A stretch of 57,311 nt of DNA, taken from positions 1 through 57,311 of the forward strand of contig JACVGW010000009.1 of the NCBI GenBank assembly GCA_018992565.1. The letters run 5' to 3'. Shown in pieces: positions 33,204 to 51,816 of this stretch. The notes beneath the pieces are model-generated. The model saw only the letters and a list, made by a program, of their open reading frames with translations, was not told where the DNA came from and searched no databases. Made by a program: the position numbers and the translations under genes. Each line of letters starts with the position of its first letter. Position 1 is the stretch's first letter. The DNA comes from Theionarchaea archaeon. Lineage in GTDB: Archaea; Methanobacteriota_B; Thermococci; Methanofastidiosales; SZ-28-30.

Positions 33204-33675
33204 ATAGACACCTACGAAGACACATCACTCCCAGTGCCGCTTTGTTGACCTGTGATATTCTGAAGAGTGATAGAGCTCCAGCAATCCACGTATCCGTAAA
33301 TGAATTGTGGTCTCCATCTTGGGCACAAGAGGTACTCGACAGAATCCAGATGCATTCATATAGGTTTGCCATACTTCAAGAGCAGTTACTTTTGAGGTGG
33401 AGCCCATGAAAGGACTAGTCTTTGATCCACGCAGGATACATCCCCTGTGAGACCCTGCGCTCTTCTGCCGGCTCTGCTTATCCGTTCTCACGCACACAGA
33501 GACTCTCTCCCGGATGAGTCGCCGTTTTTCCATGACGTTACCATGAGCACAGCCTGACTCCCACGTAATTTCAGCAGTTAATTTCCAAAAAAAACGACCT
33601 TTTATCCCTGAAAACTCATATAAACTTTCCTGACAAGAAGTCACATCTATGTGCTCTGTAATAAGAGGTGAAAAC

Positions 33676-34260
33676 ATGAAACCTTCGGACATAAATGCAG
33701 ACAAGGAGTATCTAGCATGGGATGAGAACTGCATCTGGTTGTGTAGAGAAAATGATGCTATCATTACGAGAATCCATTCAATTGGAGCGCAGCTCACCGT
33801 GAGGGTCAATGCAGAAGGGGTAAGCCTCTGGAAATTGTGTGATGGAACTCGGACTCTTGAAGACATCATTACTTTCCTGGAAGATGAGTACTATACCCCA
33901 CGTGAAATCCTGATACGAGACGTGGCATGTGCAGTGGAAGCTCTTTCAGGAATGGGATTGATTGTCACGAGAAAGGAAAAGAAGCAGTCTTTCCAGCATA
34001 TCTACAGTGTAGAAAACCATGTACGCTGGGCAGATGATGTAATACTCAGAGAAGAGGATGGAGAACTCATATTGATGAACCTGAGTACCAGTCATGTATA
34101 TGAGTTGCCTCATAAATTCCTGCCTATACTAGAAGAATGCAAAAAAGGCCACACAATAGCAGAAATCCAGAATCAGGTGGGAGAAGGGTGTGATGTAGTG
34201 AACTACGTGCTTGAATATCTGGACAACCTTGGTCTGATTGTTGTCAATTCCCAAGAGTGA
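33676..34260 (+). CDS. Tandem PqqD/RRE peptide-binding protein 1
   Basis: Two PqqD-like repeats ('NAEGVSLWKLCDGTRTLEDI...L...Y...DV...L...GLI' and a degenerate second copy). RBS GAGGTGA. Confidence 0.82.
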   Translation: MKPSDINADKEYLAWDENCIWLCRENDAIITRIHSIGAQLTVRVNAEGVSLWKLCDGTRTLEDIITFLEDEYYTPREILIRDVACAVEALSGMGLIVTRKEKKQSFQHIYSVENHVRWADDVILREEDGELILMNLSTSHVYELPHKFLPILEECKKGHTIAEIQNQVGEGCDVVNYVLEYLDNLGLIVVNSQE

Positions 34261-34265
34261 CTATC

Positions 34266-37538: not shown

Positions 37539-38907
37539 GAGGTATTCCCTCTCTCCATTTTCCTCTCATCTCGTAAAGAAACTGCAGGTATGAATTGACC
37601 CAGGAGTCTGTGATGTCTCGCGGTAGTGGGCATATTGGATTCTCAAAAGACCCCGTTGTCTGGAAAGCTTCGTATGCGCAGCCTGAGCCGCAGAGCAACC
37701 CATACTTACATCTCCTGCACTGCTCAATACGTGCTACATTCCTGGTTCTCATTTTCTGACGTTCTTCGTCATAGAGTTCGAATGTTGGGGAATATCTGCC
37801 GATTTCATGTTGCAGGACAGTGCACGAATAGATTATCCCTTCAGGGTCAAATACAAATCCGTATGGCGTATAGCAGCAGTTGACAGACAGCAGGTCCTCT
37901 CTTGCTTCGAATTTTCGAGACGCAGAGAGCTTCAACCATGAGTCAAAGAAATTTGTGAAGGTATTATAGAAGTTGAAGAGTCGAGTTGAAGGAAATTTCC
38001 TGTGTAATTCCATGAGTCTTTCCAGCATGTCATACCATTTCAAAAAATAGGGATATTCTGAGCTCACGAATTTTATTGTACTGACTACAAATGAGAGATG
38101 CCTGTCTTCATGCCATCCTCGAGATATCACAAAGTCTGCAACCTCAGGCAAATACTCTATGTTCTGGCTATCTGCATTGAACTTCAGTACTATGTTCACA
38201 TGTTTACGTGCTTCCTCTATATTCTGCACGATAGACTCAAATGTCCCACTGCCATCTCTTCTGATTCGTCGTTTGTCATGAATTCGCTGAGGACCATCCA
38301 GGGATACCTTAACCGGTATCTGATATTTTCTCAGCAGCGGAAGATATACATCCATATCCACTCCATTTGTGGTTATGCTGAGAAGGTTCATCTTCCTCTT
38401 TGCAGCCTCATGAAGAATTGAAGAGACTATGTCTTCATGTGCGGGCAGCAGAGGTTCCCCTCCTGTCAGGGACAATTGGGAAGAGGTGATCCCTTCCTGA
38501 TCAAAGAGCTTATCAAGGGCAGCACTGAACAAATCAATGGGCAGCTTCTTTGAGGGTGAGTCATTCTTTATATCAGATCGTAATCTCCGGAAGCAGTAGA
38601 CGCACTTCAGCTGGCAATCGTAGGAAGGTATTGCAATACATACTGCTATCTTCCTCCATGTCGCTGCCTCTTTTTGGTGCAGATCTTCTACGAGTGCTTC
38701 ATCCTCGCGATAGTCTTCGACTATGTAATGATTTCTTTTTAGGAATTCTTGAGTATCTTCCTGTCCTCCCCCGGTTCTATCGGCGTCTGGGCATGTGAGT
38801 ACTCTAATGACATCCTCATCGACTTCGTGCATCGTTCCTCGAAGGAAGTTCATTAGGAGATACTTCCCTTCCGAGACTTTACAGTAATGAGTGTACGGGC
38901 TGATCAT
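37522..38907 (-). CDS. Radical SAM/SPASM peptide maturase with N-terminal RRE (rSAM-3)
   Basis: CQLKCVYC, GGEP; SPASM 'DPEGIIYSC...CRRCKYGLLCGSGC...PIC'. ATG 38907 after GGAGG, directly downstream of precursor P1. Confidence 0.9.
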   Translation of the reverse strand: MISPYTHYCKVSEGKYLLMNFLRGTMHEVDEDVIRVLTCPDADRTGGGQEDTQEFLKRNHYIVEDYREDEALVEDLHQKEAATWRKIAVCIAIPSYDCQLKCVYCFRRLRSDIKNDSPSKKLPIDLFSAALDKLFDQEGITSSQLSLTGGEPLLPAHEDIVSSILHEAAKRKMNLLSITTNGVDMDVYLPLLRKYQIPVKVSLDGPQRIHDKRRIRRDGSGTFESIVQNIEEARKHVNIVLKFNADSQNIEYLPEVADFVISRGWHEDRHLSFVVSTIKFVSSEYPYFLKWYDMLERLMELHRKFPSTRLFNFYNTFTNFFDSWLKLSASRKFEAREDLLSVNCCYTPYGFVFDPEGIIYSCTVLQHEIGRYSPTFELYDEERQKMRTRNVARIEQCRRCKYGLLCGSGCAYEAFQTTGSFENPICPLPRDITDSWVNSYLQFLYEMRGKWREGIPHERTE

Positions 38908-38920
38908 CCTACTCTCCTCC

Positions 38921-38933
38921 AAAAAAAGAAAAA
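38921..38933 (-). terminator. Oligo-T tract between P1 and rSAM-3 (probable leaky archaeal terminator)
   Basis: TTTTTCTTTTTTT on the minus strand, 10 nt after the P1 stop. Confidence 0.45.
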
Positions 38934-38943
38934 TGTGGCAAGG

Positions 38944-39093
38944 CTAAAACCACACCATGCTACAATGGCACTCCTGGCCTAGGCACGCACAGCATGCGCA
39001 GCCACAAATACCGCACGGATTGTTATCTGGGGTAGTGCCTTCGATGTTAATGGTTATTCCTTGCCACGTTTTGCCTACTTCCTTGATTTTCAT
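38944..39093 (-). CDS. RiPP precursor P1, 49 aa, 8 Cys: MKIKEVGKTWQGITINIEGTTPDNNPCGICGCACCACLGQECHCSMVWF
   Basis: Hand-translated. RBS AAGGTGAG, TATA CTTATAAG at 39133-39140, Cys-free leader plus Cys-dense core, first gene of the rSAM-3/rSAM-2 operon. Confidence 0.85.
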   Translation of the reverse strand: MKIKEVGKTWQGITINIEGTTPDNNPCGICGCACCACLGQECHCSMVWF

Positions 39094-39475: not shown

Positions 39476-40447
39476 TCAAAGGTTCTTTGCTATATGATAT
39501 TCAATGATAGCATGTTCTTCACTGTGGATTATCTCTTTTTTCAGCAGCTTATTTGTCAATGAGAGCAGACAGGGTTGGAACCCCTGGAATCCTTTGAAGT
39601 CGTTGCTTCTGACAATGTCCTTCTTCAGATGTGCGAGCACAAATAGTCTGTCTGAAACTCTGAAGAAAAGACTTGATGTAGGAATCTGGGAAAACAGGTC
39701 TATGATAAAGTCCTCGTACTCTGTTCGAAAACAGAAGAGGTAGGGATCATATTCTGAGATTCCTTCAGGGAAGTAACTGGTGGTGACAGTGCAGCACGTG
39801 GGCAATTTTGCCAGGAACTTGTAAACCTTCGCTGTAGTGATCAAATGCTCTCTCATTACGGGAATGAACGTTTTCCTCAGGTTATGCCTGAAATACGTCA
39901 GTAGGTTCTCATCTTCTGAATCCCACTCTGCGGTCTCATTCCAATGTGTCCTTATGGCACATTGGGGGTTATATCTCAGAGGGCTAAAATCGTCTATCTT
40001 ATTCCTGATGGTTTCAAGCGCTTGATTCCATGAGCAGTCTGGAGCGTAGGACATGTAGTAATCGGAACGAGGAGCTTCTACCAGGATTTCCCCACTAATG
40101 TCCACTCTTTCTTTTGAAATAATCCATGAATTTGCAAACCCAGTCATTTTCGCATGATAGGATATATTTGAGTCTTTTTCAAGACGTGTGTACGTTTCGA
40201 GAGGATCCTTTGCACTACAAAAAGAAATGTATTCCTTCATGTTAGCATATGAACGCTTCCTGACATGAGGACCCAGTATGTGACTTCCTTCCATTGCTTC
40301 TTCTATTCTCCTGCTCGCGGTGCGGGGATCCACGCCAAGAGCAGCTGCTATCTCTTTCTTCTTGATTCGAGGGTTCTTGAACCACAGAATTTCATACAGC
40401 CTCCTATACTGCTTCATCCTATCCTCAAGACTGATGAGCATTTTCAC
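39476..40447 (-). CDS. ~320-aa winged-HTH putative transcription regulator, paralog A
   Basis: N-term 'NPRIKKKEIAAALGVDPRTASRRI' is an Lrp-like HTH; paralogous over its full length to 50851-51816. Confidence 0.7.
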   Translation of the reverse strand: MKMLISLEDRMKQYRRLYEILWFKNPRIKKKEIAAALGVDPRTASRRIEEAMEGSHILGPHVRKRSYANMKEYISFCSAKDPLETYTRLEKDSNISYHAKMTGFANSWIISKERVDISGEILVEAPRSDYYMSYAPDCSWNQALETIRNKIDDFSPLRYNPQCAIRTHWNETAEWDSEDENLLTYFRHNLRKTFIPVMREHLITTAKVYKFLAKLPTCCTVTTSYFPEGISEYDPYLFCFRTEYEDFIIDLFSQIPTSSLFFRVSDRLFVLAHLKKDIVRSNDFKGFQGFQPCLLSLTNKLLKKEIIHSEEHAIIEYHIAKNL

Positions 40448-40946
40448 TTCCTCCCTTCTTCGAAACAGGAATGCTACTACTGATCTGCAGATAAACCATC
40501 GAATGAGATAGATATCATGCTGCTCATGCCATCTGAGTCTTTTCCAGGTTCTTCTTCTCTCAGTCTCCAGCTCCTCACTTCACTCGGTTTTGATTGTATA
40601 TGTTGAATTCCTACTATTAGATGTAGTAGCTAGTGTTTCTTTTCCTTTTGATATTTATATCTATTTCCCAAACCTCATTGGTATTTTTTTTTAAAGGGAG
40701 ATTTTGTAGGGATTTCCTTCAACCAAGACTCTTTCAAAGGGATTTGATGAATTTATTCCCCCTCTTACAGTCACAAAGGTGAGGAGGTCACACACATCGT
40801 TCCACACGGATCATGGATCTCAGCTCGTATTTGCTATAGTTGCCCAGTATCTCATCTCAGCGTAATCGCTGATAGAGAAACAGGGAGGCATAGACTACGA
40901 GAATAAAAGAACATGTGTCTTGAACCGTTGAGACTGAACCTGCTGC

Positions 40947-40984
40947 AAAAAATTACGTTCTGAGCATTAAGAAATCATATAAAC
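40947..40984 (+). promoter_or_regulatory. P2 promoter: A-tract plus BRE/TATA (CATATAAAC)
   Basis: A-tract starts at 40947, CATATAAAC at 40976-40984, 132 nt before the P2 ATG; same layout at other island promoters. Confidence 0.55.
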
Positions 40985-41107
40985 TACAGGAACCACTATC
41001 AATAGAAAGTAATTCTTCAAGATGCCCGCCCGATTCTCCAACTTTTTGCATCCTGAAATAGTGGGCTCCTGTAAGAATAGTGAAAAACAGAAAAGAGGTG
41101 ATACAGC

Positions 41108-41272
41108 ATGAAAGCAATCTCACTAAACAAGAAGCTGTGGACAGATGTGACTATGGACAGTCTCGATTTTGTGTCTCCAGACTGTGAGGGACCTCTGATC
41201 AATGGTTGCGGAGGAGGCGGCTGCTATTTCAGTCCGTGTCCGCCCTGGATTTGGCCATGTAACTTCTTTTAG
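41108..41272 (+). CDS. RiPP precursor P2, 54 aa, 5 Cys: MKAISLNKKLWTDVTMDSLDFVSPDCEGPLINGCGGGGCYFSPCPPWIWPCNFF
   Basis: Hand-translated. RBS GAGGTGA, T-tract after the stop, paralog of P3 with mostly synonymous leader differences. Confidence 0.9.
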   Translation: MKAISLNKKLWTDVTMDSLDFVSPDCEGPLINGCGGGGCYFSPCPPWIWPCNFF

Positions 41273-41278
41273 ATTCAC

Positions 41279-41296
41279 TTTTTTTCTCTTTTTCTT
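41279..41296 (+). terminator. Oligo-T terminator after P2
   Basis: TTTTTTTCTCTTTTTCTT just after the stop codon. Confidence 0.55.
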
Positions 41297-41599
41297 CTGA
41301 GAGTTGTTGAGGGATTCTGTGTGGATGCTAATTCTGAAAGTTCCAGGAAGGTACTATCGGGTTTCAATAGTCTTTCCTTGTCAAAAGTCATCAAGAAAGG
41401 AGGGAACCCGCTTTCACTTATTCTTCCTCCTCCTGAAACCAGAAGGGGGAGAGGCAACATGCATGAGAATTTTTCCCGGAAAAAATACGCATTCCAGTGG
41501 CTGACAAATCATATAAGTATGAAGTGCCATCCCTCACCATACTGGAGGACAGCCACCCTCTTGTCCACAGGAGAAGAAGAGCTTCCCATCAGTGTTGGA

Positions 41600-41812
41600 G
41601 TGAATATCATGAGAATGAGCACATACTGCATTGCAGTACAGGCAGATGAGGATGAATACCTGCTCATCAATTCCTTAACAGGAGCTGTTGATGTTGTGGA
41701 TACTGATGTTATCAACCTACTCCAGACTGACCTCTCTCAGGGCGATCCTTCAATCCTCAACTTTCTTCAAGAGAGAGGACATATTACAGATGCCTCTTCT
41801 CAAGAGGAATTC
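41600..41812 (+). repeat. 213-bp inverted repeat, copy 1 (RBS plus RRE of rSAM-4)
   Basis: 41600-41700 is identical to the reverse complement of 50164-50264; 16 mismatches over the next 112 bp (manual alignment). Confidence 0.92.
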
Positions 41813-42961
41813 AGCCACATGGAAGACTTCTATAGAGGAGTTCGTCCAGGAATCTGCAACCGTAAGAGACACATCATCATACCAACGTACAAGTGTAACC
41901 TGCGGTGTACGTATTGTTGGGAAAGCGCCCTATATAAGAATGGAGCATCCTGGATGGAGAAGACTCTCTCTTTCCAGGAGGTTGATTCACTCTTTGAGGC
42001 CGTTGGAGAACTCGACAAGGGAGTACAGCAGCTGGAACCTCTCATATACTTTGGAGGAGAACCTATGCTCCCCGAGAATGTAAATCTCATAGCCCATATG
42101 ATGAAAGAAGGCACAGAAAGGGGATACGAGCACTATTTCGTGACCAATGGCGTCACTATTCCGGACTATCTGGACTTGTTAGTATCCCATCCAATTAAAG
42201 GTATTCAGATAACAGTGGATGGAATGCAGTCAACTCATGATTCGCGAAGGAAGGGTCCAAGGGGCGAAGGTTCCTTTCATCGGATTGTGGAGGGAGTGGA
42301 GCTTCTGAGAGATCACAGCATCAAGACATATATCCGGGTGAATGTTGATAAACTGAACATCAATTCTATTGGGGAGCTGGCTTCTTTCTTTAAAGAATAT
42401 GGATGGCATGATGATGCTTATCTTACCATGTATCTTGCTCCTGTCTTCCCACATGGATGTGGCGGTTACTCCAAAGCGTTCACTCGAGAAGCATCCATAT
42501 CAGGTCTTATATCTCTGTGGAACAACCATGATGTATGGGACGTCTTCAAGAAAGGAATCAGTGATTTTCATCCGGTCGAGTCTGCTCTCAGGGGTGAGGC
42601 GTGGAGCCCTCAGTTCTTCAACTGCGGCGCTCATTGTGACCAGCTCTTCTTTGATGCTCACGGCAGCATATACACGTGCTGGGAAGCTGTGGGAGAAACC
42701 CAGCATTGCGTGGGGCGGTTTATTCCTCACCTGCAGTTCAATGAAAACTACAAGAAATGGATGGAGAGGACTGTCTTCACTATTGAAAAGTGCAGGAGCT
42801 GTGAACTTGCTTTCCTCTGTGGAGGAGGATGCGCTTATGATGCTTATGAGCAGCATCATACGATCTCAGAACCAACCTGCGGGCATGCTGAGAAAGTGTT
42901 AAGAGAATACATTCCCTTCTACTACAACTATGTGCTTCGAGGCAATTCACATTCGAAGTGA
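41609..42961 (+). CDS. Radical SAM/SPASM peptide maturase with N-terminal RRE (rSAM-4)
   Basis: CNLRCTYC, FGGEP; SPASM 'CGAH...IYTC...CRSCELAFLCGGGC...PTC'. Start set at ATG 41609 by homology to rSAM-8. Confidence 0.9.
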   Translation: MRMSTYCIAVQADEDEYLLINSLTGAVDVVDTDVINLLQTDLSQGDPSILNFLQERGHITDASSQEEFSHMEDFYRGVRPGICNRKRHIIIPTYKCNLRCTYCWESALYKNGASWMEKTLSFQEVDSLFEAVGELDKGVQQLEPLIYFGGEPMLPENVNLIAHMMKEGTERGYEHYFVTNGVTIPDYLDLLVSHPIKGIQITVDGMQSTHDSRRKGPRGEGSFHRIVEGVELLRDHSIKTYIRVNVDKLNINSIGELASFFKEYGWHDDAYLTMYLAPVFPHGCGGYSKAFTREASISGLISLWNNHDVWDVFKKGISDFHPVESALRGEAWSPQFFNCGAHCDQLFFDAHGSIYTCWEAVGETQHCVGRFIPHLQFNENYKKWMERTVFTIEKCRSCELAFLCGGGCAYDAYEQHHTISEPTCGHAEKVLREYIPFYYNYVLRGNSHSK

Positions 42962-43085
42962 TTTATGGGAATTATTTTCGCTGGATTCAATGGAGGTGAA
43001 GAGGGATAATGTGCTTTGCAGTCTGAGCCAGACGAAAGCAATCTGGTATCATACATGGGTTCCAACTACTTTCTATGGTGAATGA

Positions 43086-44237
43086 CTAGTGAAGAACGTG
43101 ATTCTCCCTATCTGTACCTGCAGGTGCCTGAGAGGGGTCCACGGGACATTGCGGGTCTGGCTGGAAGGGGTCATTGTACACTGCATACGCAATACAGGAT
43201 GCACCTCCGCTGCAGATACGGGGAGCTTCTACGTTGAAAAAGCACTCCTGACACTTGCCCTGGACAAATCTGTGTTTTCTCCGGAATTTCCACAACAGGG
43301 GATGCTGCCAGATCGTCATGAGATCCTCTTCAAAGACATTCCCTATTTTGATGGGCATCCGCCTGCAGGGGTACACATCCCCATTTTCCTGAATATTGAT
43401 ATACGATCGCCCCACTCCACATCTGAAGCCATTCTTGGTGGAGGCCTCAGGAGTGGAAGGATCAGGGTAAATAATAGGCCAGTCACACCGAGCTCGAGAA
43501 ATGAGGGCCCCTGGTGAGTCATCAGCATCCATGATTTCATCCAGATCATCACTGAGGCTCTTAAAAAGGTTCTTGACTTGTTCTGGAGAGAGCATCTTCT
43601 CATAGAGCTTTCCCCCCCTTCCCCAGGGGACGAGGCGGGTCACTGTCAGTACGTCTGCCCCCAGCGCTTTTGCTACGTCGGGCATGGTGAAAGCATCATC
43701 ATAATTATCTCTGTGAACCACAAAATGAATGTGGGTTTCTATTGCAGTTGGGGTTAGCAGCTCAAGTGCAGCAACTGCTTTCTCAAAACTTCCTTTCCCG
43801 CGTATAGCATCGTGTGTTTCAGCTCGTGCTCCGTCCAGGCTTATCTGTACATATATGTCTAAGGGGTGCTCCTCAAGTCTTTTGACGAATTCCTCTGTGA
43901 AGTTGATTCCGTTGGAGAGAACAGCCACTAATGAATGCGCATTTATTAAGTCCGAGTGGATCTTAATGTAGTCAAGGATGTGCCAGAACTGTGGATGGAG
44001 AGTAGGCTCACCGCCAGTCAGCCAGATAACGGGTGTTCTTTTCCATAGGCAACACAAAGCAAAGAATTGGTCAAGTATGTTTTCACAGCTCTCTACAGGC
44101 ATATCCTGATGATCTTCTGCATCATCATAGCAGTGCGTGCAGCGGAGGTTGCATCGTCCGGTAATTGAAAGTTGCAGTATGAAACCTGCTTCCTCTCTTT
44201 TTTCAGAATGTGAACCTTCACCATATATTTCGTCCAC
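43086..44237 (-). CDS. Radical SAM/SPASM protein without RRE (rSAM-5, class II; paralog of rSAM-2)
   Basis: 'LQLSITGRCNLRCTHCY', 'TRLVPWGRG', 'RCDWP', 'YPCRRMP...CQEC...CSGGASC...DPQC'. GTG 44237 after GGTGA; ATG 44291 is an alternative start. Confidence 0.88.
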   Translation of the reverse strand: MDEIYGEGSHSEKREEAGFILQLSITGRCNLRCTHCYDDAEDHQDMPVESCENILDQFFALCCLWKRTPVIWLTGGEPTLHPQFWHILDYIKIHSDLINAHSLVAVLSNGINFTEEFVKRLEEHPLDIYVQISLDGARAETHDAIRGKGSFEKAVAALELLTPTAIETHIHFVVHRDNYDDAFTMPDVAKALGADVLTVTRLVPWGRGGKLYEKMLSPEQVKNLFKSLSDDLDEIMDADDSPGALISRARCDWPIIYPDPSTPEASTKNGFRCGVGRSYINIQENGDVYPCRRMPIKIGNVFEEDLMTIWQHPLLWKFRRKHRFVQGKCQECFFNVEAPRICSGGASCIAYAVYNDPFQPDPQCPVDPSQAPAGTDRENHVLH

Positions 44238-44642
44238 TTTATCACCACATGATTTTTCCTGACTGTCATTCTCAGCAGATTTCTGCAGCATGGTTCTATA
44301 TGGTTTGGCAAGAGGAGAAATGCTGCTTTTCTTTTGCGCCCTCTTGCAGCTTTCCAAAAGAAAAGAACAGGCAATAGGGGAATATTTCGTCTGTCAGTAA
44401 GGACTCTCTTACCAATATCTGTTTTTATTTTGTTGCGATAGTTATCTGTTGAAAGAATACTATTTGAAGAAGCCACTCCCGTAAAATTTCCGTTATGCCC
44501 CCTGTAGAAAAAACATACAGTCACTGTTTCATAAACTCATATAAGGTTGGTTAGACACTTCTACATAACTGAGAAGAAGGATGCTGGGACAGCCCAGTTT
44601 GTGCTTCAGGAAGACTTTCAGGGCAAGAATGAAGGAGACCTC

Positions 44643-46082
44643 ATGAGAATGAAGGAGCGTGAGAGTATGAAACCTCTAAAGAAAAGCATTGTCATTGATT
44701 TGAAAGATGGAGATTATCTTCTTATCAATCCGTATCGAGGACTCGGTGATGTTGTAGATAAGGAGACTCTCAAAGAGCTTTCTTCTCAAGATGTAGAGAT
44801 TTCCAATGGGACCATGCAGGCTCTTGCACGGAGAGGACATCTGGTAGAGGATGGAGAAGAGGACGACCTTATTCAGGCATTGAGAAGACGTGCCAACAAA
44901 ATGCACACAGAGTCGAAAAAGATCAAAGGTCATGGGATAGTAATAACATATGACTGCAATCTCCGCTGTCCTTATTGTTACGAGAGACATCTGTTTGCAA
45001 AAGAACAGAAGCGCCGTGCCACTATGAGCAGGAAAACTGTAGATATGCTTTTTGAAACAATACAGGTTATTGATTCAGAAGACAACGATGGAGGGGCCTC
45101 GGAGAATCGAGAAGAGAACCCCATGACGCTCATAGGAGGAGAACCTCTGCAGAAAGAGAACTTCTCCATCGTTGAATACATACTCAAAAAAGGTGCAGAG
45201 CTGGGATACCCCTTTTCTATTGTTACCAATGGGGCTGATCTCTCCCATTTTGCTCCCCTCTTATCTCAATATGACATCAAGAAGATCCAGATTACTATTG
45301 ACGGCGTCAAGGAAGTGCACGATAAGAGACGATACCGAAAAGGTAATCGAGGCAGCTTTGATGATATAGTAAAGGGTATAGATGAAGCGCATAAGAATGG
45401 TCTTCCTGTGGTTATTAGAATTAATGCTGATTCTGACAATATCGACAGAGTCCCGGAATTTGCAGAGTTCTACATGGACAAGGGATGGTATCCAGACATA
45501 CCAGCTCACGTATCAAATGTAACAGCCTCGGAGTGTCTGATGTACTCTCCCCTCATTACTGCTGAGCAGTTTACTAAAAAGACTATTGATCTCTTCCTGA
45601 AAGATGAGAGGATGAAAGTCTTCCGGCATTCACTCCTGACTCACAACGATCTCTTGAGACATCTCGTAAGGGACGAGGAGTTTAGCTTGAAGTTCTGGTA
45701 TTGTGGTGCTCAAGTATCAATGCTGATGTATGACCCACTGGGGGACATATATCCCTGCTTTGAAGCCGTCGGCCATGATAGTCAGAAGATTGGAGAATAT
45801 ATTCCAGAATTGAAGTTCAATGAGACCATGAACCAATGGCAGAGTCGAACAGTATTCACCATTCCTGAGTGCCTGGAATGTAACCTGGCATTTATCTGTG
45901 GCGGAGGATGTGCATACGGTGCGATAAGGACTATGGGGTCACTGAACAAGCCCTATTGCGACAGGATGAAATTCATCATTGAACATGAATTTCCCTATGT
46001 ATATCACCTGATGAAGACGGAAGAGGGGGGTTTCAAAAAAGCAGAGTCACAGGGCGGAATTCAGAAGCCCTCGCATCCTTGA
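44643..46082 (+). CDS. Radical SAM/SPASM peptide maturase with N-terminal RRE (rSAM-6)
   Basis: 'YLLINPYRG', CNLRCPYC, GGEP; SPASM 'WYCGA...DIYPC...CLECNLAFICGGGC...PYC'. Start 44643 or 44667. Confidence 0.9.
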   Translation: MRMKERESMKPLKKSIVIDLKDGDYLLINPYRGLGDVVDKETLKELSSQDVEISNGTMQALARRGHLVEDGEEDDLIQALRRRANKMHTESKKIKGHGIVITYDCNLRCPYCYERHLFAKEQKRRATMSRKTVDMLFETIQVIDSEDNDGGASENREENPMTLIGGEPLQKENFSIVEYILKKGAELGYPFSIVTNGADLSHFAPLLSQYDIKKIQITIDGVKEVHDKRRYRKGNRGSFDDIVKGIDEAHKNGLPVVIRINADSDNIDRVPEFAEFYMDKGWYPDIPAHVSNVTASECLMYSPLITAEQFTKKTIDLFLKDERMKVFRHSLLTHNDLLRHLVRDEEFSLKFWYCGAQVSMLMYDPLGDIYPCFEAVGHDSQKIGEYIPELKFNETMNQWQSRTVFTIPECLECNLAFICGGGCAYGAIRTMGSLNKPYCDRMKFIIEHEFPYVYHLMKTEEGGFKKAESQGGIQKPSHP

Positions 46083-46228
46083 TTGCATTCTAAAAGGCAC
46101 TTCAGAGTAGGACAATTATCCAGAGAAGAGAAAAACGTGCATTTCGGTGGTCAACAATCACATACGTTGTGGGGATTCAACCTGCAGGGAGATGTGACAG
46201 ACCAGTCAGGTGAGGAGGTTGATTCAAT

Positions 46229-46855
46229 ATGAAAGAAAATCAACAAAAGTATGTCCGATGGTCAGAAAATTGTGTCTGGCAACCAGTTGGAGAAATGCTT
46301 TTCATTGCGAAAGTTCTCCACCATAATGAAGGACTCACCCCAGCCCGGGAGAAGAATGACGGCAAGAAGTTGAATGGAGCAGGAAAAGACATCTGGGACC
46401 TTTGTGACGGTACCAGAACCATGGAGGAGATTGTGAATCAATTGATGGAAGAGTATACAGGTGACCCTGAAGAGATTCACAGTGATGTACAGAATGCAGT
46501 CTCAAAACTCATAGAAGAAGAATTCCTGGTTTGGGGAGAGAAATCAGAGAAATGTCACCCCCTTGAGATTAAGATGAAGGAGTATCCGACCTGGGATGGC
46601 AATGTGTTGTGGAACCAGGTTGATAATGAAGTTGTTGTCATTAATAATGTAACAGGACTGGACTATGGGTTCAGGGACGACGTGGCTGAGACATGGAAGC
46701 TCTGCAGTGGGAAGCAGTCGCTGGACGAAATCCTCAGTATACTAGAGGAAAGAGGAATCATCAATGAAGAAAATCCGCCTGTTCGATTCAAACTATTGAT
46801 CAAGCAATTCATCAACATTGGCGTTGTCACCATGAGAAAGGAGCCTGGTTCCTGA
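46229..46855 (+). CDS. Tandem PqqD/RRE peptide-binding protein 2
   Basis: 'LNGAGKDIWDLCDGTRTMEEIVNQLMEEY' and 'AETWKLCSGKQSLDEILSIL'. RBS GAGGAGGT. Confidence 0.85.
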   Translation: MKENQQKYVRWSENCVWQPVGEMLFIAKVLHHNEGLTPAREKNDGKKLNGAGKDIWDLCDGTRTMEEIVNQLMEEYTGDPEEIHSDVQNAVSKLIEEEFLVWGEKSEKCHPLEIKMKEYPTWDGNVLWNQVDNEVVVINNVTGLDYGFRDDVAETWKLCSGKQSLDEILSILEERGIINEENPPVRFKLLIKQFINIGVVTMRKEPGS

Positions 46856-47079
46856 ATGGGAACTGGAATATGAAGCGGATCATGACATATTAGAACGTGA
46901 CCGTCTTCCAGAGCAGAGGATACTACACATTTATTACTTATTTTGGGAACCCGTAAGCCGCACGACGCTTTCTGATTTCATAATAGACAAGGAATATTCC
47001 TATTTCACAGAGAAAATTCACTTTGCAGAGTATTTTCTAGAGGTGAAAGTACATTTCAGAAGCGTTGGTTTTCAACAAG

Positions 47080-47118
47080 AAAATTAGTGCTCTTTAATCG
47101 CAAAAAAATCATATAAAC
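47080..47118 (+). promoter_or_regulatory. P3 promoter: A-tract plus BRE/TATA (CATATAAAC)
   Basis: CATATAAAC at 47110-47118, again exactly 132 nt before the precursor ATG. Confidence 0.55.
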
Positions 47119-47241
47119 ATGACGTTAGAAGGAGAACCGAGGAATATTCCTGGATGCACTGAAGCACCGCTGAGGGCAGAGTGCCCGATACGTGGTGAGT
47201 TTTGAAGTGCAAGAAAACCATGAACCAGGAGGTGATATATC

Positions 47242-47409
47242 ATGAAGGCAATTTCACTGAACAAGAAGCTATGGAGAGATGTGGCCATGGGTGATCTTGA
47301 TTTCGTATCTCCAGACTGTGATGTACCGCTGGTGACTGGCTGTGGGTCTATACCGTGCCCCTCCCTTTGCATACTGCATTGCTATCCCCATATGTGTATT
47401 CACTTCTGA
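47242..47409 (+). CDS. RiPP precursor P3, 55 aa, 6 Cys: MKAISLNKKLWRDVAMGDLDFVSPDCDVPLVTGCGSIPCPSLCILHCYPHMCIHF
   Basis: Hand-translated. RBS AGGAGGTGA; 27/35 N-terminal residues identical to P2. Confidence 0.9.
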   Translation: MKAISLNKKLWRDVAMGDLDFVSPDCDVPLVTGCGSIPCPSLCILHCYPHMCIHF

Positions 47410-47566
47410 GCAACAGCTTTTTACAACATCCCTGCCCCCATATCGCCCATTGCAGCTTTTGCGGTAGGGATGGTAACCTGTGATGCATTGCGAGAGACAC
47501 AAAGAAAACTTCACAGCAACTCAGAACCCACAAGACTGAAGAATGATTCCAATGAAAGATGTTGTA

Positions 47567-48925
47567 TTATTCTCCCGGGATATTTTCCTGGGTTCTTTTT
47601 CTTTCTCCCTGAATCATTTTCCCGAACAAGGGATAATAGACATCTACTGCTTGGTTTGAGAACTCGCAATCAGGCTTCAGAAGGTCCCCCTTGGTCTGGG
47701 CAGCATAGTTGCCACAACCTCCCCCACAGATCATGGCATACCTGCAGTGTCTGCAAGATTTCATATTGAAAATTGTTCTTTCTTTCCATTGATTGAATCG
47801 CTCATTGAAGGTGACCTCAGGATAGTATGTGCCAACTGCCTCTTCTTTATTGCCTAGAGTGTCAGTACAGAGGTAGATATCTCCGAAAGGATCGAACCAT
47901 GTCTGCGATAGATAGGAACGGCAGTAACTCATTTGGGGAAGCCACTTATCTACAAAACCAAGTTTTTGGGCTATTGGACCTAACCCTCTCAGGAAAACGT
48001 CTCTGAGAACCTCATCCCCCAACAAGAACTGCAGGTCTTCTTTTTTCAGGTTATGCATAAAATTGTAGCAACCTCCTGGTGTATGATGGCGAACTGGCGA
48101 GAGGTAGATCATATTGTCTCTCTGATCCCATCCTTTCTCGTGGGCAAATTCCATAAAACTGGGCAATGTCCTCACTGTGGAATGATCAATATTGACTCTC
48201 ACATACACAGTAAAGCCTGCTTCTGCGAGCTGATCTATAGATTCAACAATCTGGCAAAAAGAACCAGTTCCATCAGCTCTTTTCTTCCTCCTGTTGTGGA
48301 TTTCCTCTATTCCATCTACTGTGATTTGGAGTGATGTGATCTTGCTCTCAAGGAGGAGAGGGAGAAAGAGGCTGCTCTCCAATCCATTGGTTACAATAAT
48401 GAAGGATTTATCACAGCGCGTTCCTCTTGTCAGGATGTACTCGATGAGTTCATAGTTGCTTGAGATGAGAGGTTCTCCACCCAGTAAATGTATGGGTGCT
48501 CTTGTATGAGGATTCAGAGTTTCCATTGCCTTGAAAGCTGCATCCACCTGCGAATGAGTCATTTTTCGCTGTAACCAGGGTTCATCTCGTGTGAAGACAG
48601 ATGAAACATAGCAGTAGTCACACCGCATGTTGCAGTCATACGTGGGTATAAGAGCAAACAGTGTGTGGTCTCTGTGCAGACTTTGAATTGATTCCAGGCT
48701 CTTGAATGCTTTTTCAGTTTCCTCTTTTGGAGAGAGTTCTGTGAGAAACCCCTGGGAAACGAGAGCAGACACTTCTTCTGAAGTCTCTTGTTCAGGATTC
48801 ACACCATTGAGGATTCGCAGTATTTCCTCTGGGCCAAAGAGGATAGCCCCTGTGAATGTATTAACAAAAAGAAATTCTCTGTTCTGGAGAGGTATCACCA
48901 GGACGTATCGACTACGTCTGAGCAA
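47567..48925 (-). CDS. Radical SAM/SPASM peptide maturase with N-terminal RRE (rSAM-7)
   Basis: CNMRCDYC, LGGEP; SPASM 'SYC...DIYLC...CRHCRYAMICGGGC...PDC'. Probable start TTG 48925 after GGAGGGAGG, coupled to the rSAM-8 stop. Confidence 0.88.
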   Translation of the reverse strand: MLRRSRYVLVIPLQNREFLFVNTFTGAILFGPEEILRILNGVNPEQETSEEVSALVSQGFLTELSPKEETEKAFKSLESIQSLHRDHTLFALIPTYDCNMRCDYCYVSSVFTRDEPWLQRKMTHSQVDAAFKAMETLNPHTRAPIHLLGGEPLISSNYELIEYILTRGTRCDKSFIIVTNGLESSLFLPLLLESKITSLQITVDGIEEIHNRRKKRADGTGSFCQIVESIDQLAEAGFTVYVRVNIDHSTVRTLPSFMEFAHEKGWDQRDNMIYLSPVRHHTPGGCYNFMHNLKKEDLQFLLGDEVLRDVFLRGLGPIAQKLGFVDKWLPQMSYCRSYLSQTWFDPFGDIYLCTDTLGNKEEAVGTYYPEVTFNERFNQWKERTIFNMKSCRHCRYAMICGGGCGNYAAQTKGDLLKPDCEFSNQAVDVYYPLFGKMIQGERKRTQENIPGE

Positions 48926-50255
48926 GGTCCTCCCTCCGTGATCTATATAGATGGGGGACGACCACATTGAGAATTTCATGATATTCCAAGCAGAGAGGCC
49001 TGTCAAGTGACCCATATTTCTCCAGAGCTGCAAACCCACACCCCCCACCACATAAGAGAGCATACTTGCATTCTTTACATTCTGGAATGGTGAATATCGT
49101 TCTTTCTCTCCATTGACTGTATTTTTCATTCCACTTTAGTTCAGGATCGTACCTGCCGACTCTTCCAGCTTCGTCACCCACATGTTCAAAACAGACGTAG
49201 AGATCTCCGAAGGGATCATAAATAATCATGTCGTCGTTTGCCTCGCAGTACCAGAAGCGGGGAGCCCCTAATTCTCCCTTGAGGAAGAGCCTTTCAAGTA
49301 CTGCGATTCCTTTGTGGTCAAAAGAAACGGTGTTCAACTCTTGGTGAGAAGTTGCGTTGGAAACAACAGCCGTATACACATCCTTCCTTTGCATGGAATG
49401 CTTGTAAGTGCCACAGGTTTTCTCGAAGATAGGTGAGAAGTGCATGGAAAGGAGAGGATTATCCACCCATCCTTTTTTCCTGGCGAAATCTACTACTTCA
49501 GAGAGGGCACCAAGATTTTCACTATCAAGATTTGTCCTGAGAAAGACTCTCAGATTCTCCTTGAGTGCTGCGTCTATTCCAGCTGCAATCTGGTCAAAAG
49601 ATCCAGTACCATCCTTTCTTATTCGTCGTTTATCATGGAGGTTCTTTGGTCCGTCAATGGTGACCTGAAGGGTGACATTCCGGCCCCGCAGCAGGTCCAT
49701 ATACTGACATAGTGATACCCCATTTGTGAGTATGATGAAGGAATGTCCAAGCGATTCTCCCCTTTCCAGGATTTCTTCGACTGCCGGCATAGTTTTTTCC
49801 ATCAACGGCTCTCCACCATACAGGGCGATTCTACCTTTCTCAGTTCCATCAACTTCAGCAATGGCCTCGAATACCTTATCAATAAGTTCCTGACTGATGA
49901 CTGTGCTCAACCACTGGGTTCCTTTTTTCCGGAGATCTGAAAGAAAGCAGTATGGGCACACCAGGTTGCAATCATAGGTTGGAATGATCATATGTGTATG
50001 CAGGTTCTTCCTGTTTTCTGTAAACCTCTCATAGAGAGTTCGTATGTCTTCGAATTCCTCTTCAGGAGATGCTTGCGTTATATGTCCTCTCTCATGAAGG
50101 AAGTTGAGGATTGAAGGCTCCCCCTGGGAGAGGTCACTCTGAAGCAGGTTGATAACATCAGTGTCCACAACATCAACAGCTCCTGTTAAGGAATTGATGA
50201 GCAGGTATTCATCCTCATCTGCCTGTACTGCAATGCAGTATGTGCTCATTCTCAT
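48912..50255 (-). CDS. Radical SAM/SPASM peptide maturase with N-terminal RRE (rSAM-8)
   Basis: CNLVCPYC, YGGEP; SPASM 'WYC...DLYVC...CKECKYALLCGGGC...PLC'. ATG 50255 after AGGTGA. Confidence 0.9.
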   Translation of the reverse strand: MRMSTYCIAVQADEDEYLLINSLTGAVDVVDTDVINLLQSDLSQGEPSILNFLHERGHITQASPEEEFEDIRTLYERFTENRKNLHTHMIIPTYDCNLVCPYCFLSDLRKKGTQWLSTVISQELIDKVFEAIAEVDGTEKGRIALYGGEPLMEKTMPAVEEILERGESLGHSFIILTNGVSLCQYMDLLRGRNVTLQVTIDGPKNLHDKRRIRKDGTGSFDQIAAGIDAALKENLRVFLRTNLDSENLGALSEVVDFARKKGWVDNPLLSMHFSPIFEKTCGTYKHSMQRKDVYTAVVSNATSHQELNTVSFDHKGIAVLERLFLKGELGAPRFWYCEANDDMIIYDPFGDLYVCFEHVGDEAGRVGRYDPELKWNEKYSQWRERTIFTIPECKECKYALLCGGGCGFAALEKYGSLDRPLCLEYHEILNVVVPHLYRSRREDLAQT

Positions 50256-50264
50256 GATATTCAC
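50052..50264 (-). repeat. 213-bp inverted repeat, copy 2 (RBS plus RRE of rSAM-8)
   Basis: Reverse-complement match to 41600-41812. Confidence 0.92.
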
Positions 50265-50850
50265 CTTTTTCTTCATCCAGCCCGCACCAGTCCTACGGAA
50301 AAGACATTTACGAGGAGTTCTTTCATGAAAAGTCAACCTATTATTATCCTTGCAACAATAAACATCAGAGAATACTTATATGTATTTCCAGGGCACGAAA
50401 TGTATTTATTTTCTGGCAAAGGATCAAGAAGGGTTCCCTGTGATCTAATTCGTATCTCCACCTGGCATCCGTATTCACCTCCAGGTATGAGAAAGAAGTG
50501 CCAGGGCCCTATCCTTTCACTGCATGTTCCCGTCCCGGGGTCTGGAGGAGACAGTCTGATGTAGGACATGAGGCATATGAACAAGTTGTATTGTCACTAT
50601 CCTCATTGGTTCTGTTCGTGTGTTCAACTTGGATTCTTTCATTCTCAGGACGTAGTCCTCACACCCTTTGTGTGGAACTGCTCCCTTCTACAGCTCCCAC
50701 CTTTTCCAACCCCCCTTGCATGGGTTGTCCTTCTTCTATTGACATAGTTAGATTCTCATTCGATAAGTTTATAAGGTCTTGATAAGAATATTCTTAACGA
50801 ATGAGAATGATCTCACAAAACAGAATGTTTTAAAGGAGGACTGAGCGTTA

Positions 50851-51816
50851 ATGGATACAAGTAAAGAAGTCAGGAGGAGACATTACCGTGCGATCTACGA
50901 ACTTTTCTGGTCAGAGAACGCCCGAATCCACCTGAAGGATATTGCATCGAGACTCCGGGTCAATCCCCGTACGGCACGGAGAAGAGTAGAAGAAGCTTTT
51001 AGCCAGGGCTACGTTACAGGACCTCAGCTCAGGAAACGGTCATATGCGAATATGAAGGAATATGTTTGCTTCGTCAATTGTGAAAACCCCACTGAAGCAT
51101 ATCTCGATCTTAGCCAGGATGCAGCCGTTGTATATCACGCACGACTGGCAGGATTCGCCAGTTTATGGGTTAGTTCAACAAGAAAAGTGACCATTGATGG
51201 CACTCCCGTGATTAAAGGCCTGCGTTCAGACTATCATGTGTCATTTGCGCCCTATCGTTCATGGGAAAAGGCAATAGAAGTCATGCGGGGAAAGATTGAA
51301 TCCTTTCATCCAGAGTGTTATGAACCCACATCGCACATTAGCTCCCACTGGGATGAAACCATAACGTGGGATGAAGAAGATGAAAAGCTCTTTCGATACT
51401 TCGAGTCTGACTTGAGGAGGATTTTCGTACCTGTCATGAAGAAACATCTCATCAGCACAGGGAAAATCTACCAGTTCCTGGAAAGACTTCCTCAATGCTG
51501 TACTGTCACAACAAGCTTCTTTCCAGAGGGGATCTCAGCTTACGACCCTTATCTCTTTGTTTTTGGGACTGAATATGAGGATTTCATCGTTGATCTCTTT
51601 TCACAGATGCCGACATCAGCTTTCTTTTTCAAGGTCTCAGACATGCTCTTTCTTCATGCGCATGTAAAGAAGGACTTGATGAGATGCGAGGATTTGGGTG
51701 CTCCTAGCATACGTCAGCTGCCCATCCCGGGTCTCATCAGTGAACTCCTCAAGAAGGGAATCATTGAGAGTGAAGAACACGCTGTGGTTGAGTATCACTG
51801 GACAAAGAGTCTCTAG
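50851..51816 (+). CDS. ~320-aa winged-HTH putative transcription regulator, paralog B
   Basis: HTH 'NARIHLKDIASRLRVNPRTARRRV'; shares 'RKRSYANMKEY' and 'FPEGIS.YDPYLF.F.TEYEDFI.DLFSQ' with paralog A. Confidence 0.7.
   Translation: MDTSKEVRRRHYRAIYELFWSENARIHLKDIASRLRVNPRTARRRVEEAFSQGYVTGPQLRKRSYANMKEYVCFVNCENPTEAYLDLSQDAAVVYHARLAGFASLWVSSTRKVTIDGTPVIKGLRSDYHVSFAPYRSWEKAIEVMRGKIESFHPECYEPTSHISSHWDETITWDEEDEKLFRYFESDLRRIFVPVMKKHLISTGKIYQFLERLPQCCTVTTSFFPEGISAYDPYLFVFGTEYEDFIVDLFSQMPTSAFFFKVSDMLFLHAHVKKDLMRCEDLGAPSIRQLPIPGLISELLKKGIIESEEHAVVEYHWTKSL

Follow-up and report, generated by a model that had tools for sequence, protein, structure and literature searches.

Analyses of a 57,311-nucleotide window (contig JACVGW010000009.1, assembly GCA_018992565.1) from an uncultured archaeon of the Methanofastidiosia/Theionarchaea group revealed that R4 and R8, two divergent radical SAM/SPASM maturases of the same cluster, begin with a near-identical N-terminal domain. 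The 5' end of the R8 gene was probably overwritten from the R4 clade by repeated gene conversion, with homogenisation favoured by docking on the leader shared by the precursors P2 and P3. The cluster holds eight rSAM genes, and about 30 such maturases are found in the genome. The features discussed below are the following.

41600..41812, plus strand: converted tract, donor-type copy; Shine-Dalgarno and codons 1-68 of R4, covering the wHTH/RRE-like domain in full and the first part of the linker helix
50052..50264, minus strand: converted tract, recipient copy; Shine-Dalgarno and codons 1-68 of R8, an N-terminus that nests among those of the R4 clade
41609..42961, plus strand: R4, CteB-like radical SAM/SPASM peptide maturase of 450 aa, clade A in the core tree (Pfam Radical_SAM/Fer4_12, CteB match)
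48912..50255, minus strand: R8, CteB-like radical SAM/SPASM peptide maturase of 447 aa, clade B in the core tree, sharing 14 nt with R7 downstream (Pfam, ortholog P0004)
44547..46082, plus strand: R6, long rSAM/SPASM paralog whose N-terminus is of a type of its own, probable start 44667 (core tree)
47567..48925, minus strand: R7, long rSAM/SPASM paralog whose N-terminus is likewise of a type of its own; paralogous to C30:27989 (core tree)
43086..44357, minus strand: short rSAM/SPASM enzyme without N-terminal extension (Pfam/NCBIfam)
41108..41272, plus strand: P2, 54-aa Cys-rich precursor immediately upstream of R4 and paralogous to that of C29
47242..47409, plus strand: P3, 55-aa Cys-rich precursor, convergent with R7/R8
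41095..41211, plus strand: leader repeat, copy 1; 13 nt upstream and codons 1-34 of P2, 79.5% identical to 47229-47345
47229..47345, plus strand: leader repeat, copy 2 (P3)
46229..46855, plus strand: stand-alone two-domain PqqD-family protein, a rival leader-binding candidate (Pfam PqqD 3.5e-18; hhalign to its second half)
33649-34260: second stand-alone PqqD-family protein of the cluster (Pfam)
39476..40447, minus strand: HTH regulator, divergent from P2/R4, paralog of 50851-51816 (64% nt)
50851..51816, plus strand: HTH regulator paralog, divergent from R8

The pairwise alignment of 41600-41812 (plus) with 50264-50052 (minus) has no gaps and comprises 213 columns, of which 197 are identical. 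No mismatch occurs in columns 1-101, and all 16 mismatches fall in columns 102-213; the probability that they would all land in these last 112 positions by chance is 2.0e-5. Self-blastn of the window detected only four non-self repeat pairs in the 57 kb, including this one (92.5% identity, E 1.6e-85), and exactly two copies of the tract, those of R4 and R8, are present in the genome assembly (2.80 Mb, 154 contigs, 88% complete). The tract consists of 9 nt of upstream sequence with a GGTGA-type Shine-Dalgarno, followed by codons 1-68 from the ATG start codons at 41609 (R4) and 50255 (R8). It begins at the Shine-Dalgarno and stops five residues into the linker helix, in close agreement with the limits of the domain. 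Within the tract, 62 of the 68 residues are identical, as against 119/378 (31%) in the remainder of the proteins. These values reproduce those of a preliminary description of the locus (101 identical positions, 16 mismatches in 213, 62/68 residues), which had also described the catalytic domains as divergent. Over the same N-terminal columns, the remaining 14 pairs formed by the window's six long rSAM paralogs share 14-37% identity. The pS between R4 and R8 is 0.05 for codons 1-31, 0.32 for codons 32-68 and 0.77, i.e. saturated, from codon 69 to the end, and synonymous divergence amounts to 0.05-0.42 inside the tract. As silent sites are nearly unchanged inside the block and saturated outside, it represents a copied module and not ancient conservation.

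The R4/R8 pair is an extreme outlier among the paralogs of the genome. For 406 pairs, formed by 29 paralogs after removal of a 30th without a comparable N-terminus, the N-terminal identity minus the core identity has a mean of -0.03 (sd 0.068); the value for R4/R8 is +0.60, and that of the next pair +0.26. In the core tree (45 rows, 379 columns), R4 groups with C29:9576 and G001:C18 (clade A, support 100/99) and R8 with C30:29316 (clade B, 100/98). Constraining R4 and R8 to group together in that tree costs 154.9 lnL (AU p 3.2e-95), whereas the N-terminal tree unites them at 100/97. Building separate trees had been proposed as a check, and the incongruence that was anticipated was indeed obtained, in strong form. 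With the R8 ortholog P0004 included, the N-terminal tree recovers R4 and R8 (98/86), then P0004 (100/99) and two clade-A rows (95/91), and this assemblage nests in a 13-row group that holds 11 of the 12 clade-A rows. Judging from these sequence comparisons, the donor was the R4 clade. The N-termini of clades A and B are 45-58% identical and thus unusually alike even without conversion; part of this similarity could reflect old shared constraint.

P0004, from a sister species, helped establish the chronology, in a comparison based on this single ortholog and on its protein sequence only. Its core is 79% identical to that of R8 (300/379), and it already carries an R4-type N-terminus, so the first transfer predates the split of the two species. 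The N-termini of R4 and R8 nevertheless differ at 6 of 68 positions as against 12 of 68 between R8 and P0004, in spite of core identities of 31% and 79%, respectively. Conversion was therefore repeated. Along residues 1-39, R4 and R8 are identical and differ from P0004 at the same five sites, while along residues 40-68 the three proteins differ from each other by 6-7 residues. The module had initially been regarded as recently copied; this stands for the first ~100 nt, which were recently re-converted, but not for the first transfer. None of the recorded R4 orthologs exceeds 67% identity, and yet P0004 keeps the R4-type N-terminus, so that its retention does not depend on a nearby R4. Natural populations appear to differ in where the identical tract ends on its 3' side, at 101 nt versus about 143 nt.

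Both proteins have features of radical SAM/SPASM peptide maturases. R4 matches CteB in sequence (5WGG, E 1.7e-16), and its full-length model matches CteB (5WHY, E 2.9e-19), TigE (4.3e-17), anSME (5e-15) and SuiB (2e-13) in Foldseek searches. The Pfam Radical_SAM signature is found in R4 and R8 with E-values of 1.8e-18 and 3.4e-15, respectively. In an alignment of 29 sequences, the cysteines of the CxxxCxxC motif (C96, C100 and C103) and C339, C357, C395, C398, C404 and C424 on the SPASM side are invariant, and C408 is conserved in at least 90%. Assignment to named NCBIfam equivalogs was rejected, the scores of R4 and R8 being 169 and 147 bits for CefB (NF038107, cutoff 600), 151 and 135 for TIGR04463 (cutoff 525), 113 and 115 for PapB (NF047865, cutoff 340), and 87 and 90 for the SCIFF maturase (TIGR03974, cutoff 425). 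By analogy, both are predicted to be peptide maturases, with a putative thioether chemistry of the sactionine or ranthionine type.

The AlphaFold2 model of R4 (pLDDT 91.9 for the full length, 90.8 for residues 1-86 and 91-97 across residues 1-70) shows an N-terminal b-b-b-a-a-a topology of three antiparallel strands and three helices, with strands at 7-11, 16-21 and 26-31, helices at 32-39 and 47-56, a short helix at 42-44 and a helix at 64-83. A VIA-align search of this domain against 48,161 chains yielded TigE residues 7-107 as the best match (Z 7.7, 85 aligned, rmsd 3.4), followed by TbiB1 with leader (6.2), lasso B1 (5.8), MibB (5.2), the PbtF RRE (5.0), PqqD (4.3), CteB (3.1) and SuiB (3.0), all Z-scores being below 8, in the range that the tool grades as middling. 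The RRE-fold assignment is based on the dominance in this list of RRE-bearing proteins, a status that we presume for several of them; in SuiB, the RRE reportedly does not coincide with the leader site. In Foldseek, the top rows for the isolated domain were TbiB1 (best, prob 0.99), TigE, CteB and LynD, none reaching E 1e-3. Pfam PqqD (PF05402) was not detected in R4 or R8 at E 0.01. A profile of 29 N-terminal sequences matched the PqqD-family protein of the cluster in hhalign (prob 78%, E 1.7e-5, 65 columns), in its second half, a region that Pfam does not call. According to the model, the tract encodes a complete winged-helix domain with an RRE-type fold. In the available part of PMC10878394, the RRE of TigE is defined to span residues 3-85, its beta3 and alpha3 form a groove, and the substrate leader of CteB is placed in the corresponding groove. 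R4 and R8 have the same beta3 and a single residue difference in alpha3. By analogy, their N-terminal domain is a putative docking site for a precursor leader.

Genes for Cys-rich precursors lie beside the maturases, P2 337 nt upstream of R4 and P3 within the R7/R8 sub-cluster. The two precursors have a common leader and different cores. Their similarity extends from position -13 to near codon 34, with 64 of 78 nt identical in codons 1-26 and 11 of 35 just upstream, in line with the shared leader noted in the preliminary description and compatible with the putative leader docking. The P3 leader resembles that of P2 and not that of the C30 cluster. The two stand-alone PqqD-family proteins of the cluster could be the true leader chaperones.

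We propose that R4 and R8 are paralogous CteB-like RiPP maturases from different clades of the ~30-member family, and that non-reciprocal homologous recombination replaced the ribosome-binding site and codons 1-68 of R8 with R4-clade sequence. This would have occurred at least twice, a first conversion of the whole domain before the species split being followed by a later one of about the first 100 nt, now identical. As happens in CteB, strand addition at the beta3/alpha3 groove would dock the leader of the precursor on the domain, and both enzymes would install different cross-links in the Cys-rich cores of P2 and P3. Homogenisation of the RRE would be favoured because both enzymes must act on the near-identical leaders of P2 and P3. 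More tentatively, and with some doubt on our part, the leader and the recognition domain may constitute a single transferable cassette. Both an RRE of R4/P2 type and a leader of P2 type would have been written into R6-P3-R7-R8, a sub-cluster that has another ancestry and is paralogous to the C30 locus, and the RRE copies would be kept alike by recurrent conversion that still segregates in the wild.

Conversion might also be real but neutral, without selection for a shared docking module, whether or not the leader is bound. The stretch would then have been homogenised because, of all the DNA of the inverted paralogs, the N-termini were the most alike beforehand, as the resemblance between the N-termini of clades A and B would suggest. 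R6 and R7, which lie beside the same precursors, manage with N-termini only 14-28% identical to those of R4 and R8, so a shared RRE is not required for acting on the P2/P3 leader; the presence of PqqD-family proteins and the retention of the domain in P0004 without a recorded R4 point the same way. Nevertheless, the ends of the tract match the domain closely, dN/dS is low in codons 32-68 (pN 0.081 vs pS 0.32), the leader of P3 is P2-like, and no second conversion tract was found among the 30 paralogs. We thus regard neutrality as rather unlikely.

It is also unlikely, in our estimation, that the N-terminal domain has a role other than leader docking, such as contacting a partner protein or the enzyme's own C-terminal tail, with the stand-alone PqqD-family proteins presenting the leader. 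Both such proteins are encoded in the cluster, and in the TigE crystal the groove is occupied by that protein's own C-terminal tail, as reported in the available part of PMC10878394. However, CteB, the closest solved relative, uses that groove for its leader, and the short SPASM enzymes devoid of an N-terminal domain would be the likelier clients of stand-alone PqqD proteins.

We consider it very improbable that the repeats function as a recombination switch, in which a crossover flips the 8.3-kb segment and swaps the promoter and precursor context of the catalytic cores. The repeats are identical over 101 nt, inverted and in frame, so that genes would be intact in either orientation, and contigs built with 31-nt words cannot phase them. 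Nevertheless, no inversion joint was found in the independent assemblies and no recombinase gene among the ORFs scanned from 33 to 52 kb, and a crossover alone would exchange the N-termini, not duplicate them.

The genome being a 154-contig metagenome assembly, a chimeric or collapsed repeat had to be considered, but this is contradicted by the data and highly implausible. The copies differ at 16 sites within one contig. In four runs from four studies, contigs end 30 nt into the repeat, at 50235 in every run and at 41629 in three, and the repeat unitig has about double depth in X6 (599 vs 236-243) and X9 (23.4 vs ~12). In one run, pieces with no more than two differences each cover the whole 10 kb, and the independent P0004 record has the same chimeric architecture. 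The shared 5' boundary and the double depth in two assemblies thus settle the earlier concern about assembly collapse in favour of a real repeat. Lastly, an ancient duplication without recombination, followed by very strong purifying selection restricted to the N-terminus, although the domain is functionally important in relatives, is contradicted and practically negligible, given that silent sites are conserved as well, that the average over the other 405 pairs shows weaker conservation of the N-terminus than of the core, and that the core tree rejects the grouping of R4 with R8.

The shuffling of RRE domains among enzyme classes is assumed to date from deep time. Under our preferred reading, gene conversion from the R4 clade, the locus would represent RRE copying caught in the act at the DNA level, in which the donor clade is clear, two steps can be dated and the tract matches the domain boundary. 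R4/R8 and P2/P3 would be a natural counterpart of engineered leader/RRE swaps, with the same docking domain on 31%-identical cores and the same leader on different precursor cores. If true, the tentative cassette would amount to natural, ongoing 'plug-and-play' recruitment of new catalysts to an existing leader in RiPP pathways of archaea, which to our knowledge have been little explored for RiPPs.

The nearest counterparts are CteB (thermocellin sactisynthase, 5WGG/5WHY) and TigE (cyclopropylglycine synthase, 8VPO), which have the same three-part layout as R4 and R8: a wHTH domain of RRE type at the N-terminus, a radical SAM barrel bearing CxxxCxxC, and a SPASM domain. Full-length R4 is matched best by CteB in both sequence and fold, and its N-terminal domain by the TigE RRE. 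Unlike them, R4 and R8 are archaeal, belong to a cluster of eight rSAM genes and share only 15-19% identity with these enzymes. In two-maturase sactipeptide systems, RumMC1 and RumMC2 likewise represent more than one rSAM/SPASM maturase for a family of related Cys-containing precursors, but the available text of PMC8188230 does not describe a DNA-level conversion tract confined to the RRE. As far as the accessible part of a 2026 review indicates, recombination between RiPP maturation enzymes is 'not commonplace' (PMC13500794). Gene conversion in modular PKS/NRPS systems, as presented there, similarly involves non-reciprocal copying within one biosynthetic cluster that alters or homogenises a module while the rest diverges; in our case, the converted module is the predicted substrate-recognition domain of stand-alone RiPP tailoring enzymes. 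In work on lasso peptides and LPPs, from what the accessible portion of PMC13381572 reports, the RRE and the leader also form a co-evolving pair that sets the match between pathway and precursor among coexisting pathways. There, divergence avoids cross-talk, whereas R4 and R8 illustrate the opposite, two RREs and apparently two leaders having been made alike.

R4 and R8, two CteB-like radical SAM/SPASM peptide maturase genes of the window, begin with near-identical DNA, hereafter the tract. Ungapped alignment of 41600-41812 (+) with the reverse complement of 50052-50264 (the copy on the minus strand) gave 197 identical columns out of 213 with zero gaps. The first 101 columns are free of mismatches and all 16 mismatches lie in columns 102-213, a distribution with a chance of 2.0e-5 of falling entirely in the final 112 positions; the figures of the preliminary description, 101 identical bp and 16 mismatches in 213 bp, are thus reproduced. 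Since the start codons (ATG 41609 for R4, ATG 50255 for R8) and the GGTGA-type Shine-Dalgarno sequence before each are located within the tract, it consists of 9 nt 5' of the ATG followed by codons 1-68, in agreement with the earlier proposal that it spans the ribosome-binding site and the first 68 codons. The divergence of the catalytic parts noted then was also found, with 62 of 68 residues identical in the tract versus 119 of 378 (31%) outside it. The tract (inverted, 92.5% identity, E 1.6e-85) is one of four non-self repeat pairs in a self-comparison of the window. The remaining three pair up the genes of two HTH regulators (64.5% identity along 791 nt), the 5' ends of two small ORFs (117 nt, 79.5%) and two short SPASM genes (71% across 121 nt). 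Genome-wide (2.80 Mb in 154 contigs, 88% completeness), the tract occurs in these two copies only.

Main genes of the cluster (window positions; strand where assigned)
33649-34260, PqqD-family protein
34257-35624, R1, long radical SAM/SPASM gene
37522-38922, R3, long radical SAM/SPASM gene
38944-39093 (-), P1, Cys-rich small ORF, candidate precursor
41108-41272 (+), P2, Cys-rich small ORF, candidate precursor
41609-42961 (+), R4, long radical SAM/SPASM gene
44547-46082 (+), R6, long radical SAM/SPASM gene
46229-46855, PqqD-family protein
47242-47409 (+), P3, Cys-rich small ORF, candidate precursor
47567-48925 (-), R7, long radical SAM/SPASM gene
48912-50255 (-), R8, long radical SAM/SPASM gene

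The region 33.6-51.8 kb additionally encodes two short SPASM enzymes and one methyltransferase. The long enzymes match Pfam Radical_SAM and Fer4_12, and their best NCBIfam models are the peptide maturases CefB, TIGR04463, PapB and SCIFF, with scores far under the curated cutoffs. By sequence, their best solved relative is CteB (5WGG, E 1.7e-16), the alignment beginning at residue 93. No NCBIfam model matched P1, P2 or P3. P1 has a leader unlike those of P2 and P3 and is a neighbour of R3 and one short SPASM gene, so that the left half of the cluster resembles a pathway of its own. Two paralogous HTH proteins of ~320 residues, encoded at 39476-40447 (-) and 50851-51816 (+), lie on either side of the P2 to R8 block, inverted relative to each other and each arranged divergently with one of the two converted genes (64% nucleotide identity to one another); neither reached a curated NCBIfam cutoff, one having no match and the other three weak ones. 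Elsewhere in the window, archaeal-type housekeeping genes were detected above cutoff (archaeal RqcH, FBP aldolase/phosphatase), and the closest database homologs are labelled 'Candidatus Methanofastidiosia archaeon' and 'Theionarchaea archaeon'. At 23362-26870 lie heterodisulfide reductase genes of HdrB-like and HdrA2-like type, with scores under the curated equivalog cutoffs.

Compared with the genes that carry it, the tract is young. By the Nei-Gojobori method, pS between R4 and R8 is 0.05 over codons 1-31, 0.32 over codons 32-68 and 0.77 (saturated) from codon 69 to the end, with corresponding pN values of 0, 0.081 and 0.463. The other 14 pairs among the six window paralogs show 14-37% identity in the N-terminal columns. 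With 30 long CteB-like radical SAM/SPASM paralogs (hmmsearch score >150), the family is unusually expanded for a genome of such small size (2.8 Mb). They mostly form tandem pairs on at least 15 contigs (C4, C13, C29, C30, C52, C62, C64, C71, C97, C102, C105, C128, C132, C140 and C154). For the 29 with a comparable N-terminus (the match of the one dropped begins at model position 87), the excess of N-terminal over core identity has a mean of -0.03 (sd 0.068, 406 pairs). The value for R4/R8 is +0.60, and the next highest, +0.26, +0.21 and +0.14, all involve R4/R8 relatives. When the DNA of the 30 genes with 400-nt flanks was compared, no further pair of genes shared 100 nt or more at ≥80% identity; the 100% matches were overlapping extraction windows of neighbouring genes.

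Separate trees of the N-terminus and the core were incongruent, as had been anticipated. In the core tree (379 columns, 45 family members from this genome and its relatives), R4 forms a clade with C29:9576 and the latter's counterpart from the same genus (support 100/99), and R8 groups with C30:29316 (100/98) elsewhere in the tree. A constraint that unites R4 and R8 lowers the log-likelihood by 154.9 (AU p 3.2e-95). In the N-terminal tree (68 columns) the two are paired (100/97); forcing the R8 N-terminus with its core sister C30:29316 is rejected (AU p 0.034), though weakly for a test on 68 columns taken by itself.

Searching the database with the R8 core returned 97 proteins at E ≤1e-60, among which P0004, the R8 ortholog of a sister species, has ~80% core identity and the others ≤56%. 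P0004 has the same length as R8 (300 of 379 core positions identical) and also harbours the R4-type N-terminus; a related-locus search of genome contigs found no locus for it. For the R4 core, none of the 14 matches at E ≤1e-100 exceeded 67% identity. In an enlarged N-terminal tree of 45 rows, from which two exact duplicates and two truncated rows were excluded, R4 and R8 pair (98/86), joined by P0004 (100/99) and then by two proteins with cores of clade A, that of R4 (95/91). All of these are nested in a 13-row group (83/89) that includes 11 of the 12 clade-A-core rows. The position of the R8 N-terminus among clade-A rows makes the R4 clade the donor and the R8 lineage the recipient. Residues 1-39 are the same in R4 and R8, with P0004 departing from the pair at five sites; over residues 40-68, the three mutually differ at 6-7 sites. 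The simplest history would have two steps, with at least two conversion events supported. The whole domain would have been transferred to the R8 lineage before the split of the two species, and a recent conversion over about the first 100 nt would have followed in the lineage of the window, which agrees with the step in pS along the tract. The proposal of a copied module is supported and sharpened, with the R4 clade as donor and at least two events, the first predating a speciation. The copying is borne out by pS and the trees; the recency holds for about the first 100 nt and fails for the first transfer, which precedes the speciation, as P0004 indicates.

The repeat was also looked for in sequencing data, since an assembly collapse had been raised as a possible artefact. 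Of 23 runs listed, 20 (from 7 studies) contain half or more of the words sampled from 41000-42400. For four runs, each from a different study, Logan contigs (31-nt words) were placed on 40900-50900. Left-side contigs end at 41629 in X7, X9 and X17, the three runs covering that side, and all four have right-side contigs that end at 50235; each of these stops is exactly 30 nt inside the repeat, as expected on entering a two-copy sequence. In run X6, a 101-nt piece (41600-41700) has a depth of 599 versus 236-243 for its single-copy neighbours; in X9, a 143-nt piece (41600-41742) has a depth of 23.4 versus ~12. Pieces with at most two differences tile the full 10 kb in X9, the sole run read completely; the lack of cover over 41.9-49.9 kb in three of the four runs, of which only about two thirds was read, is uninformative on presence. 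The stops and the roughly doubled depth thus argue for two copies; the phasing of tract with core is beyond such contigs, since 31-nt words cannot phase a 101-nt repeat, and the link rests on the original assembly and the independent record P0004. The 143-nt length of the double-depth piece of X9 suggests that the two copies are identical further along in that population than in the window, a hint of, not proof of, polymorphic tract ends. A minority branch with 41743 C>A and 41746 T>G was seen in X9 over 41743-41770, where the second copy of this population differs from R8 of the window. Several metagenome runs also contain strain variants in the intergenic region upstream of R8 (50509-50713): some ten SNPs and a 1-nt insertion, linked to one another and similar in depth.

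The full-length AlphaFold2 model (29-sequence family alignment; pLDDT 91.9, pTM 0.90) shows strands at residues 7-11, 16-21 and 26-31 and helices at 32-39 and 47-56 with a short helical turn between them. A long helix, residues 64-83, links this part to the radical SAM barrel, which begins at 87. The tract (residues 1-68) thus takes in the entire small domain and reaches five residues into the linker. Matches to the full model are CteB (E 2.9e-19), TigE, anSME, ChlB and SuiB. Modelled alone (pLDDT 90.8), the domain had no Foldseek match at E 1e-3; the top rows short of that threshold were TbiB1 with bound leader (prob 0.99), TigE, CteB and LynD. VIA-align against representatives gave Z 7.7 for TigE residues 7-107, 6.2 for TbiB1, 5.8 for lasso B1 with leader, 5.2 for MibB, 5.0 for the PbtF RRE (RiPP recognition element), 4.3 for PqqD, 3.1 for CteB and 3.0 for SuiB, with MccB and McbB ranking between the PbtF RRE and PqqD, and TbtB, ThcOx, NisB and LynD between PqqD and CteB. 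Several of the matched regions are RREs. Neither R4 nor R8 has a PqqD domain according to Pfam; profile-profile alignment to the PqqD-family proteins of the cluster matched their second half (probability 78%, E 1.7e-5, 65 columns). These proteins, the window pair and C30:24464-25159, have ~200-230 residues and two apparent RRE-like halves, the first alone detected by Pfam and the second aligning to the radical SAM N-terminal profile. According to a TigE study (PMC10878394), the TigE RRE spans residues 3-85, a wHTH of three strands and three helices whose groove between beta3 and alpha3 resembles that of peptide-bound CteB. We conclude that the N-terminal domain has an RRE-type fold. When the complex of the R4 N-terminal domain and P2 was predicted (alignments of 29 and 5 rows, respectively), the score was 0.06, against a mark of 0.32, a result that weighs neither way.

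The leader said to be common to P2 and P3 was found again. Their likeness begins 13 nt ahead of the ATG and ends near codon 34, with 64 of 78 nt identical over codons 1-26 and third positions agreeing in 20 of 34 codons; the preceding 35 nt are identical at 11 positions, and the core peptides are unrelated. The cluster is a mosaic by its paralogies: P2-R4 has a paralogous precursor and maturase on contig C29, whereas R6, P3, R7 and R8, with the PqqD-family gene and a short SPASM gene, have a paralogous locus on C30, which has the same R8-like/R7-like tandem. Both tandems show a 14-nt overlap of the R8-type gene with the beginning of the R7-type gene that follows it (window 48912-48925; C30:29313-29326), which suggests translational coupling of the two maturases. 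The P3 leader is closest to that of P2, less so to that of the C29 precursor and least to that of the C30 precursor; thus, in the C30-like half, the leader and one RRE are both of P2/R4 type. This single case is the best in silico support for a functional link. That the same docking domain would serve the same leader is plausible. Nevertheless, R6 and R7 keep N-termini that share 25-28% identity with their R4 and R8 counterparts, which counts against any simple rule of one leader per RRE. The motif LNKKLWT, in this or a closely similar form, is repeatedly present in the leaders of this family's Cys-rich precursors, on other contigs, in a same-genus genome and on two metagenome contigs (window 41108-41272 and 47242-47409; C29:9269-9421; C30:26636-26776; C97:6233-6352; L004:2998-3153; L104:1702-1863; L035:2597-2791). 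Among the 80 loci kept from a metagenome search with a clade A+B alignment and very generic patterns, L104 is the only one ≥50% identical and the sole one with an R4-like N-terminus (56.7%).

A targeted literature search, with most subscription journals outside its scope, found no earlier description of RRE-limited conversion. According to a 2026 review (PMC13500794), gene conversion is well documented within PKS and NRPS clusters, and recombination between RiPP maturation enzymes is 'not commonplace' owing to RRE sequence diversity. A 2026 study describes RREs that diverge, avoiding cross-talk between co-resident pathways (PMC13381572); R4 and R8 represent the converse case. RRE-bearing radical SAM maturases and intra-cluster gene conversion are both known already, and the R4/R8 case is a variant of both.
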